In this document: in pieces, positions 196-32,489 of the stretch | How the letters are laid out: each line of letters opens with the position of its first letter | Numbering within the stretch: position 1 is the first letter of the stretch | Assembly (NCBI RefSeq): GCF_947501665.1 | Contig: NZ_CANMWS010000011.1 | Span: 1,382 to 65,381 of the forward strand | Origin: an uncultured Shewanella sp. | Lineage (GTDB): Bacteria > Pseudomonadota > Gammaproteobacteria > Enterobacterales > Shewanellaceae | Reading direction: 5' to 3' | DNA: 64,000 nucleotides | Made by a program: the position numbers and the translations under genes | The notes under the pieces: model-generated | What the model saw: the letters and a program-made list of their open reading frames with translations, nothing else | What the model was told of the DNA's origin: nothing | Database searches by the model: none

Positions 196-1515
196 TTAGA
201 GAAATGGTGACCAAGAAGGCGATTTTACTTCCCCTTGTCCCATTGGTAATCTTGCTTTAAATCGCCCATCCATCGATACCGCGGCCAAAACTTGTTTGCC
301 TTGATAAGTCGTCCCATATATAACCATTGTGCCATTAGGCGCAATACTTGGAGACTCATCTAAGTGTGTCTCCGTCAACACTTGCATAAAACGGGTTTTT
401 AAATCCATTCTGGCAATATGAAATTTACCTTTTGTTCGATTAACAAATACAATGCCTCTTCCGTCAGGCATCACAGTTCCACCTAAATTCCATTCACCTT
501 CAAAGGTCAAACGGGAGATTTTTCCAGTGTCTAAATAAGCACGATATAACTGTGGCCTTCCCCCTCTCTCAGAAGTAAATAATAACGATTTACCATCTGG
601 AAACCATTTTGCTTCTGTATCAATCGCATAATGATTTGTGACGCGCTTTAAAGCCTTTGTTGCAATATCAACAATATAAATATCCGGTTGCCCATCTTTT
701 GACAGTGTAATCGCTAATTTCTTACCATCCGGTGAAAAAGCGGGTGCACCATTAATATTCGGATAGCTGGTCACTTTTGTTCTAGCCTGAGTATAAATAT
801 CTTGGATATAAATCTCAGATTTTTTATTTTCAAAACTCACATAGGCTAACTGTCTTCCATCTGGAGACCAACTAGGTGACATCAATGGCTCAGGTGAACG
901 TAAGAGCATTTGCTCATTAAAACCGTCGTAATCTGCAATCATTAAACGATAAGGAAACTTATCGCCATGCTTGACAACAACATAAGCAATACGCGTTAAA
1001 AAGGCCCCTTTAATTCCTGTCAATTTTTCATAAACAATATCACTGATCCTATGCGCATATTGCCTAAACTGTGCTTCAGAGATCACAGCCTCGCGGGTAT
1101 CAAGGAGCAAATCATTTTTTGTCGCCGTTGGATCCTGCTGAGCTTTAATTAAGTCTATCAAATCAAAACTAACTAAATATTGCCCAGCACCATAAGGTTT
1201 CACTGTACCCGCCACAACAGCTTCTGCACTCACTTTCCCCCAAGCAGCGGCATTAAAATCAATGATGCCAGATAATGCTTTTTGAGGTAGTCCAAATGTA
1301 TCAATTGGATGAAAGGTGCCACTGCGAGCCAGATCAGATGTCACAACATCTGAGATTTGTGAAGGAACAGGACCTTGTCCCTCCCATTTAAACGGCATAA
1401 CCACAATAGGACGTGCCGCATCAACCCCTTCGGTAATAACAATGTCCAATGCCGCCTTGACTGGGGCTGAACAAAGTACAAGTATTAAAACCAAATATTT
1501 TCCTAATACTTTCAT
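196..1515 (-). CDS. tolB: Tol-Pal system periplasmic protein TolB
   Basis: 439 aa with a signal peptide and repeated beta-propeller blades (SPDG..LAY/LAI/LLF motifs). It lies between tolA and pal. Confidence 0.95.
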
Positions 1516-2463: not shown

Positions 2464-2901
2464 CTATTTCTCCTTTTGCGCATCAGTCATTAATCCAACC
2501 GAAGGCACTCCTGCATTTTGTAAGGTCACCATTAGTTGAATAACTTTCTCATAGGCAATACTTTTATCCGCTTTAACAACAACGGGTCTTTGGGGCTCTA
2601 ATTGAATAATAGCCGCCACTCTCACCGCTATTTCATCCAGACTCAGGGTCTGCCGATTACTGACACTCCCCACATCTAAATAATAATCACCTTGTGCATC
2701 AATCGATGCCACAACTGGCGGTTTACTGTCAGCGGGTAACGTTTCAGCTGCGCCTTGAGGCAAATCGACTTTCACTCCTTGTGTCACAATAGGGGCTGTG
2801 ACCATAAAAATAATCAAGAGTACCAACATAACATCGATATAAGGCACAACATTGATCTCAGCCACAGGACGACGACGTTTTCGTTGATAGCCTTGCTGCA
2901 T
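2464..2901 (-). CDS. tolR: Tol-Pal system protein TolR (ExbD/TolR family)
   Basis: 145 aa with a single TM helix and the INVVPYIDVMLVLLIIFM motif. Its stop abuts the tolA start. Confidence 0.9.
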   Translation of the reverse strand: MQQGYQRKRRRPVAEINVVPYIDVMLVLLIIFMVTAPIVTQGVKVDLPQGAAETLPADSKPPVVASIDAQGDYYLDVGSVSNRQTLSLDEIAVRVAAIIQLEPQRPVVVKADKSIAYEKVIQLMVTLQNAGVPSVGLMTDAQKEK

Positions 2902-3590
2902 TATCCTTTATCCTTTTCGCTATATGCTTGACGGTGCAATATGCTGGAGAACTCTTCCATAAAATTAGCATACGCCATTTCAATCTTCTCAACTTGAGTT
3001 GAAAAGCGATTATATGCAATTACAGCAGGAATAGCGGCAAATAATCCCATAGCTGTTGCAATTAACGCTTCAGCAATACCAGGAGCGACCATGGCCAACG
3101 TAGCATTTTCCACTGCACCCAATGCAATAAAAGAATTCATGATGCCCCATACTGTTCCAAACAAACCAATATAAGGACTTGTTGACCCTATCGTTGCCAA
3201 TAAAGGTAAATGAGTTTCTAAACTGTCCAACTCTCTAGACAGTGACACTCTCATTGCTCTATAACTCCCGTCCATCACCGCTTCTGGTACTCGACCGTTT
3301 AACTTACTTAATCTTGCATATTCTTTAAACCCAGTGACAAAGAGTAACTCAGTGCCAGTATTACTCTCTTGACGCGCGGAAAGCTCTTGATAAAGTTTAT
3401 TTAAATCTACACCGGACCAAAATTTATCTTCAAATTTTTCAGTTTGTACTTTTGCTGAGGTCAATAATTTACGTCGTTGTAAAATGACCCCCCACGACAC
3501 AACAGATAACGCCAGTAAGGTCAACATGACAAATTTAACCAGTAAACTGGCCTGTAAAAATAGACCAACTAAAGAGATATCAGCTTCCAC
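2901..3590 (-). CDS. tolQ: Tol-Pal system protein TolQ (MotA/TolQ/ExbB channel)
   Basis: 229 aa with 3 TM segments and the conserved [10 protein letters not shown] / [11 protein letters not shown] motifs. Confidence 0.93.
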
Positions 3591-28010: not shown

Positions 28011-28658
28011 TTAACCACATAACTTTAGACACCTTGGCTCTTGATTTTTTAAACGGAAATTTTCATTTGATACAAAGTTGTCTATTTCTGTTAATAACAG
28101 GTCTGTCGCCTGAGTTATAGACACAATATATTTCTCAATATTCTCCGAATCAGGAAGGATAGAATTTTCTCCATGTGCAATCCGGTTGCGAAACATAACA
28201 ATTCTGTCTATATCTCCGATTACACCTTTAAAAGACTCAAAATTAAAACCAAACACGGTACATAGCTCTTTAAGTACATTACTGTTTAAATTTGACTTTG
28301 TATCTATGTCTTTTTTAAAACTAATTTTTTTCTGAAATATCTCTATGAAACTGTCTGTAAAAACTACCTTTTGATCGAATGATTGTTTACCACTTAATGA
28401 ATTATATTTAGTTCCTAAACCAAGAACTATTAAATTTGTAGGCACTTCACTTGGGTTCAGTTTCAAGCTATTTAGGTAATCAATTAATAGTTTAAGAGAG
28501 CTAACAACATAGCCTTCCCAATGCGCATAAATCATAGGCAAACACATTCTATTCCACAAAGAACCATCCACTTTCTGAGGGTTCACTTTAAAAGTCGCTA
28601 ATTCTCCATCACGCCAGTTATTCTCTGCTTGAATTTCATCAATTAAATTATGCGTCAC
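28011..28658 (-). CDS. HEPN-domain protein (MAE_28990/MAE_18760-like predicted RNase)
   Basis: Alpha-helical, 215 aa, with an Rx4H motif in FRNRIAHGEN. The GTG start overlaps the upstream DUF262 gene by 11 nt. Confidence 0.65.
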   Translation of the reverse strand: MTHNLIDEIQAENNWRDGELATFKVNPQKVDGSLWNRMCLPMIYAHWEGYVVSSLKLLIDYLNSLKLNPSEVPTNLIVLGLGTKYNSLSGKQSFDQKVVFTDSFIEIFQKKISFKKDIDTKSNLNSNVLKELCTVFGFNFESFKGVIGDIDRIVMFRNRIAHGENSILPDSENIEKYIVSITQATDLLLTEIDNFVSNENFRLKNQEPRCLKLCG

Positions 28659-29700
28659 CTTTAAAAATCTCCAAGGCCCTATCCATACGCTTTCTAATTC
28701 TACCTGTTGAAAAAGTACTAGTACCTATACTGTTATAAACAGTATCATTTAGCAGAAGTCCAATTTTTTCGTCAATCGCATCTTCATTACCAATAACAGA
28801 TCCAAATGTTTTAGGTAAAGCGTAAGCTAATGAGTCAAAGATATGCAAAGCAAAATTACCTTTGGGTCTAAACACCGATTTTCCGTGTCTAGAAGCAATG
28901 TACTCAATAAATTGATTTAAGCTATTTTCTTCAAAATTTAAATCGAATGGTGTAGAAGCATTGGACACAGACTTCATGAATTCACTTAAAAATTGTGGAA
29001 CTGTCGTTTTAAAATCACCTTCGAGGTTTTTAAATGCAAAAAACCTTAAAGCTAACTCTTCTAGGAACATTTGCTCTAGCTTTGAATCACTAGGGCTAAT
29101 AATTTCAATAAATTCAGGCTTTTTAGCTACTTTTTTCAATATGCTATTTAAATCAACTTTGTAGCCTCTAAAAATACAATTTCTTATTTCTTGCTCAGAA
29201 AGTGGACTTGCACCTGTATTAAGACGATTAAATAATTCATATCTTATGTCTTCTTGGCTATCCCATTTTACAATTTCTACTCTACACACTGAGCGTTTAA
29301 TAGTTGTTTTAAGTTTTAATGGGAGTGTGCTGATAGTTGTATTTTCAAGCTCATTAACTAATTCACCTTGTGTGAGTATTGAATTGTTTTTCTCAGGCAA
29401 GGACTCCAACAAGCCAAAGAATGCAAATATTGATGAAATACGTTGAAGACCATCAACAACCTCCCATCTCCCATCATCATCTTCAGCTACAAATACAGGG
29501 GGAATTGGTATCCCAAGTAAAACGGATTCAATAAACCTTGTTTGTTGAAAAATAGACCACCTAAATACGCGTTGATACTCAGGTGAAATAAACAAATCAC
29601 CATCTTCAAACATATTCATCAACTCACCAAATGACATATCTAAACGATCTGTTTTTAAGGAGTTTCTTTTAAGAGCTATAGCTTCTTCTAACTTTGGCAT
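28648..29700 (-). CDS. DUF262 (ParB/GmrSD N-terminal-like) protein without a DUF1524 nuclease domain
   Basis: ISPEYQRVFRW and VVDGLQRISS motifs are characteristic of DUF262; 350 aa with an AGGGG SD. Confidence 0.8.
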   Translation of the reverse strand: MPKLEEAIALKRNSLKTDRLDMSFGELMNMFEDGDLFISPEYQRVFRWSIFQQTRFIESVLLGIPIPPVFVAEDDDGRWEVVDGLQRISSIFAFFGLLESLPEKNNSILTQGELVNELENTTISTLPLKLKTTIKRSVCRVEIVKWDSQEDIRYELFNRLNTGASPLSEQEIRNCIFRGYKVDLNSILKKVAKKPEFIEIISPSDSKLEQMFLEELALRFFAFKNLEGDFKTTVPQFLSEFMKSVSNASTPFDLNFEENSLNQFIEYIASRHGKSVFRPKGNFALHIFDSLAYALPKTFGSVIGNEDAIDEKIGLLLNDTVYNSIGTSTFSTGRIRKRMDRALEIFKGDA

Positions 29701-29777
29701 TTTATGCCCCTAATTTATGTATTATAAGATATTCGAATATTACCGCTTAGAGTAATCTAAAGTGAAGAGAATTATTT

Positions 29778-29872
29778 CCTAACTTTTGTATAATCTACAT
29801 AATCAACTACCACGTCAAAACAGTACTGTGACTAAAAATTAAAACATAGCTAATATACTGTATAGTATATAA
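29778..29872. repeat. Island repeat family 1, full unit
   Basis: CCTAACTTTTGTATA (29778-29792) and motif B ending in the palindrome TATACTGTATAGTATA (29854-29869). Confidence 0.7.
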
Positions 29873-29897
29873 TTTTTTAAAAACAGCCAACTTACTT

Positions 29898-31067
29898 TTA
29901 GAAATACAACCTAGCAATTTTTTCTAATTCTTGATTAAAACTTTCAACATCAGGGGACTCTAAAGTAAAAGTAAAGTCTAAAGTTACATGCTCATCATTA
30001 TGTGCAAGATTCTCTAGTGTTTCAGGAATTTCGATATGAACACGATTCACAAACTGCTCAATTTTGACGAGAGAATCATCTGAAAAACCTGATAATACTT
30101 TCAGTATTGGCTCAAAGTCTTCATTGACCTCTAGAGTAGTAAATGAAAGTTTCCAGTTGATAATTTGCTCGTAAACTTCAAGTAACCTCTGGCACACATG
30201 CTGTATTTTACGATAATCACCTTGTTTGCCAGGCTCACCAAACGACTTCAACACAGCATCTTTGACTAAAATTGTTGTGATTCTGATTAGTTTAAGCATC
30301 TCTTTATTGTGCGACGTAATCCAATCTAACACGTCTTGAGGTTCTTCAATAACAACTACATCGTTAAAGGAAATTCCGTATTCTAGGTCGAATTTTTTGT
30401 GTTCCAAACGATCTAGATATGTTTTGCATAGCAAAGCAAAAAGTAAATGTTCCCAGCCATCTGGTTTTTCAATCACTAACCTTGTTGCGTGAGGTGGGAA
30501 GAGATCCGAAGGTAGGTTTACTTCATTAACCTTCAGTTTTTTCCGAGCCTCTAAAGAGTCCATGAAAAGATAAGGTATTTGCTGAAGTAAAGCTGACTTG
30601 ATATCAGAGGCAGTATCAAACTTGTACACCCAGTTTGATTTAAAATGTGAAACATTTTCAACAAACTCGAATACTTTTTGGTTTTCTACATGGCTTGAAA
30701 AATCAGCATCTGGGTTATTCTTCCAAATGGGGAGGATATCCAAAATACCCGTGTTTACAAATACATAAATTGGTATACCTTTTCTTTTAGCTTCCAAGTA
30801 TTCAAGGTTTGTTATTGACTTCCCACCGTCAGTTTGAAAACCGTAACGGCTACCAATGATCAATACAAATATATCGGCTTTTTCTCGAACATTTCGGAGA
30901 CAATTAGAAATAGTATCCGTATCGGGAAAAACTGGAAATGAGTCATATTCAGACAATACTGGCTCAAGACCAAATGTTTGGATTAGATCCCTGATGTCAG
31001 ATCGAACTTGACCTAAGTCAAAACACGTTGAACTAACGAAAACTGTTGGTTTATAGCCAACTGGCAT
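29898..31067 (-). CDS. DUF4062-type (TIR-like / nucleoside 2-deoxyribosyltransferase-like) N-terminal domain protein with an uncharacterised C-terminal half of about 210 aa
   Basis: N-terminus TVFVSSTCFDLGQVRSDIRDLI...ADIFVLIIGSRYG...ITNLEYLEAKRKGIPIYVFV follows the DUF4062 pattern as I remember it. I recognise no family for the C-terminal half. Confidence 0.7.
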   Translation of the reverse strand: MPVGYKPTVFVSSTCFDLGQVRSDIRDLIQTFGLEPVLSEYDSFPVFPDTDTISNCLRNVREKADIFVLIIGSRYGFQTDGGKSITNLEYLEAKRKGIPIYVFVNTGILDILPIWKNNPDADFSSHVENQKVFEFVENVSHFKSNWVYKFDTASDIKSALLQQIPYLFMDSLEARKKLKVNEVNLPSDLFPPHATRLVIEKPDGWEHLLFALLCKTYLDRLEHKKFDLEYGISFNDVVVIEEPQDVLDWITSHNKEMLKLIRITTILVKDAVLKSFGEPGKQGDYRKIQHVCQRLLEVYEQIINWKLSFTTLEVNEDFEPILKVLSGFSDDSLVKIEQFVNRVHIEIPETLENLAHNDEHVTLDFTFTLESPDVESFNQELEKIARLYF

Positions 31068-31215: not shown

Positions 31216-31423
31216 TCTATTAAGCTGAGATAGTCATAAAACTATAAGCTGCTTGCTCTCATATTGACTAGGAAAATACCACCAAAGTATTAACTTTGTA
31301 AACTAAATGTTTGTTTTTGATAATGATAGAAGTGCACACTATTGATTCAGATCACAACTTTATGGATACCTCCTATTAATACACACTCAAATCAAAGTAA
31401 CACCCTGCTTTTGATGTTCAACT

Positions 31424-31545
31424 CAGTGTAAACACGGTTGTGGCCGTCCGTGACATGGATGTCACGGCCGAAGCTATAGGGATATACTTGCGCTGTGTTA
31501 CAAGTGTGTTTGCACAAAAGCCTGCTGCAAGCGATTAGCATCAAT
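31424..31545 (+). ncRNA. Structured element copy 1 (candidate ncRNA or structured DNA element, unassigned)
   Basis: Closing helix GTGTAAACAC (31426-31435) / GTGTTTGCAC (31506-31515), inner hairpin CCGTGACAT-GG-ATGTCACGG (31448-31467), and a conserved tail GCACAAAAGCCTGCTGCAAGCGATTAGCATCA. Strand is inferred from G-U wobbles. Confidence 0.45.
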
Positions 31546-31786
31546 AAGATCAGAATTAATGGAAAACCAGTCCAACACCAAATAGCCTAAATGAATACAT
31601 CAAAAATGTGATCAACTTTCATTTGAAAGCTTACCTATGTAAGTAAGCACTCACTACAATCCATTAAGCGAAGCTTCATCTCTTCGAGCCAGCATAAAAC
31701 AATAAACAAAAATTTAGAATGTAGGTAGCTATAATTAAGCCCCTTCTTTTGATTTTGTCTTTGCTTTCATCTTTGCTTTTAAACCC

Positions 31787-31909
31787 CAGTGTAGATGCAA
31801 CTGTGACCGTTGATGGCAGGGATGCCATCGTCGAACTTACATGGAGTGTACTTGCAGTGTGTCACAGAGGTATCTGCACAAAAGCCTGCGGCAAGCAATT
31901 AGCATCATC
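31787..31909 (+). ncRNA. Structured element copy 2 (paralogue of 31424-31545)
   Basis: Closing helix GTGTAGATGC (31789-31798) / GTATCTGCAC (31870-31879) and inner hairpin GATGGCA-GGGA-TGCCATC (31812-31829), with the same conserved tail. The helices are kept by compensatory changes relative to copy 1. Confidence 0.45.
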
Positions 31910-32102
31910 AAGGGAACAAGTAAACAGGAAAGAACATTTAAGTATAAAACTTAATCAAAAGGGGGATACCTTCACTAGAAGGTTAAACTTAGGTGCTGAA
32001 ATAAAAGTCACTAGGCAATAACACTGAGTGCCGCATTAAAAGCGACACTCAACATGAGCTCAAATGCTCTAGCTCAAACTCTATTGAGCGGCTTAAAACC
32101 GA

Positions 32103-32489
32103 TCAATGATTACAATCTGGGCCATGTTCGTGATCGTCATCCATAAACTCATCATCGCCTTCTTGATGCTGCATCACGCCCCAACCATCACTCATGCCGC
32201 CAAACTCCCCCGCAAACTCATTGAGGCTAGATTCTTGCGATACAAGGGCTTCATATTCAGGCACCATGTTTAAGCATACAATGAGTTCCCACTTACCTGA
32301 CTCATCGTTTAACAAGAGCTCTGCTTCACCTTCTAAATCTTTCGTTTGAATATCTTCAAGTGCCGATTCAGCATCCCTTTGATCGTCAAAAACTAAAAAG
32401 AAATCAATATCAAGTGCTTTTGATAAATCGATGCCAGCATCGGCCATTGCCGCTAACATTTTACCATTGTCATCATCAGGGTATTGCAT
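32103..32489 (-). CDS. RraB-like (regulator of RNase E activity B family) acidic protein
   Basis: 128 aa, very acidic, with an ...DGWG... core and an Asp/Glu-rich tail, as in E. coli RraB/YjgD. Confidence 0.55.
   Translation of the reverse strand: MQYPDDDNGKMLAAMADAGIDLSKALDIDFFLVFDDQRDAESALEDIQTKDLEGEAELLLNDESGKWELIVCLNMVPEYEALVSQESSLNEFAGEFGGMSDGWGVMQHQEGDDEFMDDDHEHGPDCNH

Follow-up and report, generated by a model that had tools for sequence, protein, structure and literature searches.

A tandem pair of compact TwoAYGGAY-like RNA elements in an intergenic region of Shewanella

A 64,000-nucleotide stretch of DNA from an uncultured Shewanella sp. (contig NZ_CANMWS010000011.1, positions 1,382 to 65,381; the whole stretch is called the window below) carries two direct copies of a structured element of about 122 nt beside the gene rraB. 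The pair is almost certainly a real plus-strand structured element, and very probably represents a compact, Shewanella-restricted variant of the TwoAYGGAY RNA class (Rfam RF01731; Weinberg et al., 2010, PMC2864571). As an explanation of the data as a whole, we favor, with some reserve, tandem paralogous genes for compact small RNAs (sRNAs) of this class that act as decoys for the protein CsrA. The class itself has already been described; the compact variant, which has a conserved 3′ hairpin tail of its own, is uncatalogued. The pair does not amount to a novel type of system, and no link to phage defense can be demonstrated for it. It is a well-supported structured RNA pair and a new compact variant of a known, functionally unsolved class.

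Results

Two Copies of One Fold in the Window

The covariance model R1 matches copy 1 with 123.2 bits and copy 2 with 124.2 bits (coordinates in Table 1) and finds no further match in the 64-kb window, even with filters off. An earlier note on this DNA had placed two same-strand copies here and judged them two-thirds identical; both statements hold, the identity in the family alignment being 67% over the structured part (61/91). Pairwise alignment extends the homology from ~50 nt upstream of the fold to ~10 nt beyond the tail. Single-sequence folding of both copies recovers the helices that had been drawn, namely a closing helix (GTGTAAACAC/GTGTTTGCAC in copy 1 and GTGTAGATGC/GTATCTGCAC in copy 2) and an inner hairpin (CCGTGACAT/ATGTCACGG and GATGGCA/TGCCATC, respectively). 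The two copies share one three-way-junction fold, with plus-strand energies of -45.2 kcal/mol (z -2.9) for copy 1 and -44.5 kcal/mol (z -3.2) for copy 2. Their reverse complements reach z-scores of just -1.2 and -1.3.

The window copies are read as non-coding because of the covariation described below and the 1-nt indels between them, which backs the placement of the pair in non-coding DNA by the earlier note. A 90-amino-acid TTG open reading frame (ORF) is present at 31749-32021. Two ORFs of 50 amino acids on the minus strand (31392-31544 and 31676-31828) overlap the copies in different registers, and a small-protein reading of the region was rejected. No tRNA or tmRNA was found in the window. 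In agreement with the earlier note, which could not match the motif to an RNA family, no Rfam family reaches its gathering threshold on the copies; at E <= 10 only noise appears, and the weak matches to sxy, CRISPR-DR, ceN104, and miRNA-type families were treated as such.

Covariation and Loop Conservation across the Family

Twenty-four short-form copies were aligned with MAFFT, an alignment that is not structure-guided, and RNAalifold gave a consensus of 37 pairs: a 19-bp basal stem, a 2-bp neck with a 7-bp hairpin 1, a 3+3-bp hairpin 2, and a small tail hairpin. Double compensatory changes are seen at 27 of the 37 pairs, and 96.2% of cells are paired over the 24 sequences, which bears out the earlier note's view of a structured element kept by compensatory changes. 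Double-change cells number 166, compared with 48.5 in shuffles, and the observed value was attained in none of 500 shuffles. Sliding the partner by 1-3 columns lowers the pairing to 26%-48%. The basal stem shows double changes at 12 of its 19 pairs, with 94.5% of cells paired; eight of nine pairs covary in the stem of hairpin 1, as do all six in hairpin 2. The alignment holds 62 G·U-type cells and 3 A·C-type cells; the fold therefore belongs to the plus strand, as had been proposed from the two copies, and the better plus-strand z-scores given above agree.

Both hairpin loops read C-A-N-GGA-Y-G, with a closing C·G pair. The loop A is present in 24/24 copies, GGA in 24/24 for loop 1 and 23/24 for loop 2, and the last position is a pyrimidine (Y) in 23/24. 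The spacing between the two GGA triplets is constant at 23 nt.

Probable Membership in the TwoAYGGAY Class

TwoAYGGAY RNAs of Pseudomonadota have been described as pairs of AYGGAY-loop hairpins that share a basal stem, with enriched doublets, a median of 11-23 copies per Pseudomonas genome, GMTBT(T) 5-6-mer arrays on the 5′ side, and variants that carry additional AYGGAY hairpins; an extended architecture has three extra hairpins and a 3′ pseudoknot, and the wider class is associated with repetitive extragenic palindromic (REP) arrays in Pseudomonas and shows mobile-like copy-number behavior (bioRxiv 10.64898/2026.09.22.753630). In topology, the RF01731 consensus and the compact element agree, both having two adjacent hairpins on a basal stem, and the loop words, CAuGGAUG and GCCaUGGAuGGC in RF01731, are the same as well. 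An Rfam scan of 16 related loci (L numbers) gave four RF01731 matches, in L013, L015, L012, and L043. Each of the four sits on the other strand from the compact element and forms a divergent doublet with the nearest compact copy, the 5′ end of which is 70-230 nt away. The suggestion in the earlier note that the pair might be something new, without known relatives, is not supported in view of the shared architecture and by this physical pairing with canonical RF01731 matches.

Other traits of the class recur in the compact family, which is multi-copy and forms doublets, in tandem with its own type and divergent with canonical copies. Upstream in sense orientation, GMTBT-type 5-mers (six 5-mers) occur at 2.09 per 100 nt, 3.3-fold above the null of 0.63 from random windows, compared with 0.78 in antisense and 0.16 downstream; the enrichment is confined to the sense strand. 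In L008, 11 consecutive CGCTTTT units lie upstream. Because RF01731 and R1 do not match across the two forms, the case for class homology rests on architecture, loop words, and co-location instead of a model score. Given the failed RF01731 score and the ANGGAY loop, the element is classed as a variant and not as an ordinary RF01731 member.

The canonical partner in L013 (~2990-3300, minus strand), L015, L016, L028, L043, and L012 forms a conserved block of ~350 nt that includes several extra hairpins. These blocks are consistent with the extended architecture, and RF01731 passes its threshold in only some of them (43-51 bits). CCTAAC...GTTAGGC words upstream in loci of strain TC10 had raised the idea of integron attC sites; L013 contains no attC array, and the blocks proved to be opposite-strand canonical TwoAYGGAY copies.

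Genes for IS110-family transposases (DEDD_Tnp_IS110) are present at L006 6351-7457(+), L024 5956-6657(+), and L018 1-~330. At these three TC10 loci, the transposase genes share an end junction, ...GGATGGGTCCAT, that falls within the canonical TwoAYGGAY partner, which suggests that an IS110-family insertion sequence targets TwoAYGGAY hairpins. A tyrosine recombinase of 319 amino acids (Phage_integrase and Phage_int_SAM_4) is encoded at L043 2516-3475(+), convergent with a tandem pair and one canonical TwoAYGGAY.

Relatives and Size Variants

More than 30 relatives were found, all in one Shewanella clade. With these relatives included, the structure lies far outside what chance would give. With a degenerate tail pattern, representative genomes yielded 28 matches. 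The real ones are confined to Shewanella and come from S. surugensis (7 contigs), strain TC10 (5), UCD-KL21 (3), and two uncultured isolates (4 each), with one each from S. marisflavi, S. electrodiphila, and Isolate7. About 16 further matches to this pattern, in unrelated taxa, are put down to chance, and R1 finds no copy in them. R1 confirmed the Shewanella matches and added copies with divergent tails; S. surugensis has at least 9 copies over its 7 contigs and strain TC10 has 5 loci. A metagenome scan added just 3 true copies. The plasmid and phage collections show no similarity to the element, and R1 does not find it at rraB in four other Shewanella genomes (L002-L005).

A single complete copy is the rule at most loci, with tandem doublets in the window, L045, L023, and L043. 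The S. surugensis rraB locus (L001) has homologs downstream of rraB. The ortholog of copy 1, L001 11090-11289(-), is 95% identical outside a ~75-nt insert in hairpin 1; the second homolog is copy-2-like, with a compensated change in helix 2 (CTGTGAC/GTCACAG to CAGTGAG/CTCACTG), and the third is a partial copy. Both long L001 forms keep the same outer helices when folded. Additional GGA hairpins, such as AAUAAGGACAUUUAU and GCCAAGGAUGGC, are contributed by the inserts of the S. surugensis and L006 copies, and the insert in L049 is an inverted fragment of another copy.

Identity between copies ranges from 46% to 100%, with a median of 65%, and different species have kept copies at orthologous positions (L033/L041, L011/L047, and window copy 1/S. 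surugensis B). Beside a CMD-family gene, L011 833-958(-) and L047 4708-4834(-) have flanks that can be aligned by eye and internal stems that are wholly different; hairpin 1 of L047 matches window copy 2. This site points to copy replacement or gene conversion among paralogs.

The 3′ Tail, Upstream Flanks, and Neighboring Genes

The tail consists of a conserved A-rich linker followed by a small GC hairpin, GCCUGCGGCAGGC. Its near-invariance between the window copies, which the earlier note had pointed out, stands at 89% identity (31/35), and the 32-nt tail pattern occurs exactly twice in the 64 kb, with 0 expected by chance. The tail is less invariant between species than inside the source genome, and the exact pattern AAGCCTGCNGCAAGCNATTAGCA has no match in the genome or metagenome collections. 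On the minus strand, the tail reads as a 5-bp GC hairpin and then UUUUGUG, with a terminator-like score, at 31512-31532 and 31876-31896. In the window copies, the plus-strand tail hairpin contains a C·A mismatch that would be G·U on the minus strand.

Mini units, made up of one GGA hairpin and then the GCCUGCNGCAGGCAAU tail, lie in the flanks of many copies, with R1 scores of 20-37 bits, and suggest that the tail is a separable module. Such units are frequent beside full copies, where a single GGA-loop hairpin (e.g., GTGGATGGGAATCCAC) is followed by GACCTTA and the same GCCTGCNGCAGGCAAT tail.

An AAWTCGAAGA-type motif lies within 70 nt upstream in 26 of 35 copies and at -15 in 17 of those 26. 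The -10-like boxes listed by the earlier note, TATTAAT (31374-31380) and TATAAT (31730-31735), are present in the window but have no fixed position across the family: a TANNNT hexamer is found upstream of the TCGAAGA motif in 13 of 25 copies, at scattered positions, against a null of 0.28. About 146 nt 5′ of copy 2, the sequence TGTAAGTAAGCACTCACT (31638-31655) agrees with the UvrY/GacA box in 10 of 12 positions, and the similar CATAAGTAAGTACTTACA occurs in L007. The hairpin ATTAAGCGAAGCTTCAT (window 31663-31679) is also found downstream of copies in L020, L029, L035, L045, and L040. In L007, a mini GGA hairpin is found inside this stem, and the window version resembles an "empty" basal stem.

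The copy pair sits between the 3′ end of rraB (32103-32489, minus strand) and the 5′ end of a DUF4062 gene (29898-31067, minus strand), 354 bp upstream of the latter. RraB is 89% identical to the S. surugensis protein, and all its close matches are in Shewanella. Beyond the DUF4062 gene are genes for a GmrSD_N protein (PADLOC NsnA/PD-T4-2_A-like, E 1e-64) and a RiboL-PSP HEPN protein, the cluster spanning 28011-31067 on the minus strand; the DUF4062 protein itself has no PADLOC match. These genes plausibly form a defense cluster, with which the RNA family has no connection. Immediately beyond the rraB stop, a hairpin at 32003-32036 (GAGTGCCGC-ATTAAAA-GCGACACTC) is followed on the minus strand by the T-containing GTGTTATTG and is probably the rraB terminator. 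An Rfam ceN104 match at 32003-32036 is spurious.

Table 1. Features of the two window copies, their flanks, and related forms at other loci
Feature	Location	Strand	Basis or remark
Copy 1, complete unit: basal stem, two GGA hairpins, 3′ tail	31421-31547	+	R1 match, fold
Copy 1 basal stem, encloses three-way junction	31426-31515	+	31426-31444 pairs with 31497-31515; alignment columns 7-25/80-99
Copy 1 hairpin 1, loop CAUGGAUG	31448-31467	+	GGA 31457-31459; columns 29-35/42-48
Copy 1 hairpin 2, loop UAGGGAUA	31472-31494	+	GGA 31480-31482, 23 nt past first GGA; columns 54-59/67-77
Copy 1 conserved 3′ tail hairpin GCCUGCUGCAAGC	31520-31532	+	CACAAAA directly before; near-invariant in family
Copy 2, complete unit	31784-31911	+	R1 match, fold
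Copy 2 hairpin 1, loop CAGGGAUG	31811-31830	+	GGA 31820-31822
Copy 2 hairpin 2, loop CAUGGAGUG	31835-31858	+	GGA 31843-31845, 23 nt past first GGA
Copy 2 conserved 3′ tail hairpin GCCUGCGGCAAGC	31884-31896	+	
TCAAAGT, copy 1 version of the family's upstream AAWTCGAAGA motif	31392-31398	+	Deleted in copy 2
Shorter repeat stretch CCTGCTTTTGATGTT before copy 1	31405-31419	+	
Upstream motif TAGAATGTAGGTAGC	31715-31729	+	Also in L020, L035, L036, and S. surugensis copies; possibly part of a promoter
Short CTTTTG/GCTTT repeat run directly 5′ of copy 2	31745-31783	+	
Long form, 50-80-nt insert in hairpin 1 or 2	L001 11090-11289	-	
Long form, as above	L001 12389-12587	-	
Long form, as above	L006 825-1017	-	
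Long form, as above	L049 6797-6972	-	
Mini units	L020 ~1060-1110 and 1232-1288		
Mini units	L036 ~2500-2680		
Mini unit	L035 5962-6020		
Mini unit	L045 2234-2294		
Mini unit	L001 10941-10989		
Ysr224 weak match	31441-31542	-	
Ysr224 weak match	31804-31909	-	
Ysr224 weak match	L013 3386-3479	-	

Discussion

In the mechanism that we favor, each plus-strand RNA would form a ~19-bp basal stem with two adjacent GGA hairpins, followed by the A-rich linker and the GC hairpin. The two loops would together make a bipartite high-affinity site that clamps one CsrA (RsmA) dimer, as the loop motif, the spacing, and published proposals suggest. Each copy would then be a small CsrA decoy, and variants enlarged by extra GGA hairpins would take up more of the protein. 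The family would move or reshuffle among intergenic sites by a mobile-element-like or recombinational route; because it would spread between such sites in this way, the element may stand beside the defense cluster by chance.

The step of CsrA binding is tentative, its probability being at best evenly balanced. The consensus for CsrA from systematic evolution of ligands by exponential enrichment (SELEX) is RUACARGGAUGU, which the compact loops resemble, and a GGA spacing of 23 nt is inside the range that one CsrA dimer can bridge. TwoAYGGAY and CsrB (RF00018) are placed in the same Rfam clan, CL00106, a clan that was checked on E. coli csrB. CsrA binding has been proposed for TwoAYGGAY RNAs (Gardner and Eldai, 2015, PMC4333381) and the proposal has been repeated (bioRxiv 10.64898/2026.09.22.753630). 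Shewanella CsrA is 93% identical to the E. coli protein, and the BarA/UvrY-CsrB1/B2 pathway is present (PMC3171408).

Several points weigh against a class assignment and decoy role of this kind. RF01731 gives no match on the window copies, either at gathering (43 bits) or at E <= 10 on 1.2 kb or 156 nt, and R1 gives none on canonical RF01731 copies. Loop position 2 is a pyrimidine in just 9/24 copies for loop 1 and 7/24 for loop 2, so the motif is ANGGAY and not strict AYGGAY. Each unit has just two GGA sites. Across the family there is no sigma-70 -10/-35 pair at a fixed distance, and the UvrY/GacA box TGTAAG-N6-CTTACA is not family-wide, other "matches" to it being GGA mini-hairpins and the remaining copies showing none; no plus-strand intrinsic terminator was found 3′ of the tail after either window copy. 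A sponge role also leaves the copy number, the nesting, and the flanking repeats unexplained.

The GGA loops might instead be read by a partner other than CsrA, either a protein tied to the spread of the element or another RNA-binding protein, with a role other than CsrA titration. Such a partner would suit units with two GGA sites, no UvrY box, and no canonical sRNA terminator, as well as the strongly conserved 3′ tail, which CsrA binding leaves unexplained, and the mobile-like copy-number behavior of the wider class (bioRxiv 10.64898/2026.09.22.753630). No neighboring protein gene was found to be conserved across the loci, however, and the alternative is considered unlikely. The sequence of the loops and their presentation are very close to the known CsrA site, as given by the SELEX consensus. 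A decidedly more doubtful reading is that of mobile DNA akin to REP sequences, REPINs, or miniature inverted-repeat transposable elements (MITEs), in which single-stranded DNA (ssDNA) hairpins would serve a transposase or recombinase and the RNA would be incidental. The copies are dispersed, form tandem and divergent doublets, and include nested and partial forms and single-hairpin mini units; at orthologous sites the internal stems can diverge far more than the flanks (L011 versus L047); IS110-family insertions lie beside or inside partner elements; the wider class is associated with REP arrays in Pseudomonas (bioRxiv 10.64898/2026.09.22.753630); and G·T pairs are tolerated in ssDNA too. Freely covarying stems with invariant loops are, however, the pattern of a folded RNA, unlike that of transposase-bound terminal repeats, the identities of 46%-100% (median 65%) speak against a recent burst, and no transposase is consistently close by. 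A selected RNA is favored over mobile DNA because of these stems and loops, the old divergence, and the retention of copies at orthologous sites across species. It is similarly improbable that the compact unit, its mini relatives, and the insert forms constitute a modular, self-propagating RNA gene system in which the 3′ tail, and not the GGA loops, is the handle for copying or recombination and copies prefer the borders of variable regions. Sites of this border type are the window itself, where rraB meets the DUF4062/GmrSD island, and positions upstream of orphan genes in strain TC10; were this reading true, CsrA-site dosage could be linked to accessory-gene turnover.

A cis-acting element, either an insulator or terminator for convergent genes acting through the minus-strand tail (GCUUGCCGCAGGC then UUUUGUG) or the leader of a downstream gene, would agree with the terminator-like character of both window copies on the minus strand, with the convergence of most copies outside the TC10 group with the next gene, and with a co-directional gene 235-500 nt downstream in the TC10 group. 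The large fold is nevertheless specific to the plus strand (62 G·U versus 3 A·C cells), the U-tract is lost in mini units, the orientation of the downstream gene is inconsistent, the stem is just 5 bp, and rraB probably has its own terminator at ~32003-32036; a cis-acting role is thus very unlikely. The earlier note had offered two readings, a defense-associated non-coding RNA for the DUF4062/GmrSD-HEPN genes and the two subterminal hairpins of an IS200/IS605-type non-autonomous element, and for these the pair is suitably placed, 354 bp upstream of the DUF4062 gene and near the GmrSD_N and HEPN gene pair. The co-occurrence check that it had proposed goes against a defense role. The neighbors at ~25 other loci are diverse housekeeping genes, and the 30 flanking proteins from ~20 loci are mostly of this kind (among them a glyoxalase, a polysaccharide deacetylase, an Fe-S (Fer2_3/Fer4) protein, a TonB-dependent receptor, a PAPS reductase, a radical-SAM enzyme, an aldehyde dehydrogenase, a topoisomerase IV/gyrase A-type protein, and a sigma-54 activator), and those scanned are without a DUF4062, DUF262, or HEPN domain. 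PADLOC gives no match for 5 orphan genes downstream of TC10-group copies, and the element is absent from the rraB loci of other Shewanella. As for transposon ends, the copies are mostly single and complete, and neither a Y1 transposase (TnpA) nor TnpB is among the nearest-neighbor genes scanned with Pfam. Either reading is extremely improbable.

Of the bacterial structured RNAs without a demonstrated function, those of the TwoAYGGAY class are among the most abundant. The Shewanella form is near-minimal, being made up of a single basal stem, a pair of GGA loops whose 23-nt spacing is fixed, and a short conserved tail, and its natural variants add or remove GGA hairpins; it is therefore a clean substrate for the study of CsrA binding, the role of the tail, and the spread of copies. 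Entire lineages of the class escape the present Rfam model, so that copy numbers and taxonomic range are underestimated.

Comparison with Known Systems

Like the ends of IS200/IS605 and PATE elements, the copies are same-strand imperfect hairpins in non-coding DNA. Each compact copy, however, is complete and self-contained and mostly stands alone, and no Rfam IS605-orfB/HEARO-type match was found. REP/REPIN, ERIC, and MITE-like repeats resemble the family in their dispersed intergenic copies of ~120 nt, long hairpin-like fold, size variants that arise by internal insertion, and apparent targeting by IS110-family elements. The compact copies differ in being old and divergent, in stems that covary around invariant loops, and in a G·U asymmetry that points to RNA; no terminal inverted repeats with target-site duplication, as in MITE-like elements, were identified in them.

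The Csr/Rsm sponges (CsrB, CsrC, and RsmX/Y/Z) likewise present GGA motifs in hairpin loops and share clan CL00106 with TwoAYGGAY. They carry roughly 5-22 GGA sites, against two per compact unit. The compact family also lacks a family-wide UvrY/GacA box and a plus-strand terminator and has far more, dispersed copies, and the Rfam CsrB and Rsm models give no match on the window copies. In S. oneidensis, csrB1 and csrB2 are tandem paralogs, as is the window pair, although Shewanella CsrB1/B2 are ~420 nt long and the compact unit is ~122 nt (PMC3171408).

Ysr224 (RF02770), a Yersinia sRNA, gives weak matches of 14.7-18.6 bits on the opposite strand (Table 1), against a gathering threshold of 70 bits, and is a lead only. 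Reverse-complemented, its consensus has two hairpins with AGGGAU and CAUGGAUG loops. Ysr224 may be a TwoAYGGAY-like RNA that was modeled on the wrong strand.

The likeness to TwoAYGGAY itself lies in the adjacent hairpins on a basal stem, the GGA loops (CAuGGAUG and CCaUGGAuGG in RF01731, CANGGAYG in the compact form), the occurrence in Gammaproteobacteria in many copies and in doublets, the sense GMTBT(T) arrays on the 5′ side, and the variants with extra GGA hairpins. In contrast to the canonical form, the compact form has a hairpin 2 of 6 bp that contains an internal loop, where the canonical one has ~15 bp; its basal stem runs almost without a break over 19 bp, and loop position 2 can be any base. 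Pairs of the same compact type are tandem and not divergent, and the form has to date been seen only in one Shewanella clade. Where the extended architecture and the canonical Shewanella copies have extra hairpins, the compact unit shows one 3′ hairpin, and this belongs to a near-invariant 3′ module of its own, CACAAAAGCCUGCGGCAGGCAAU.

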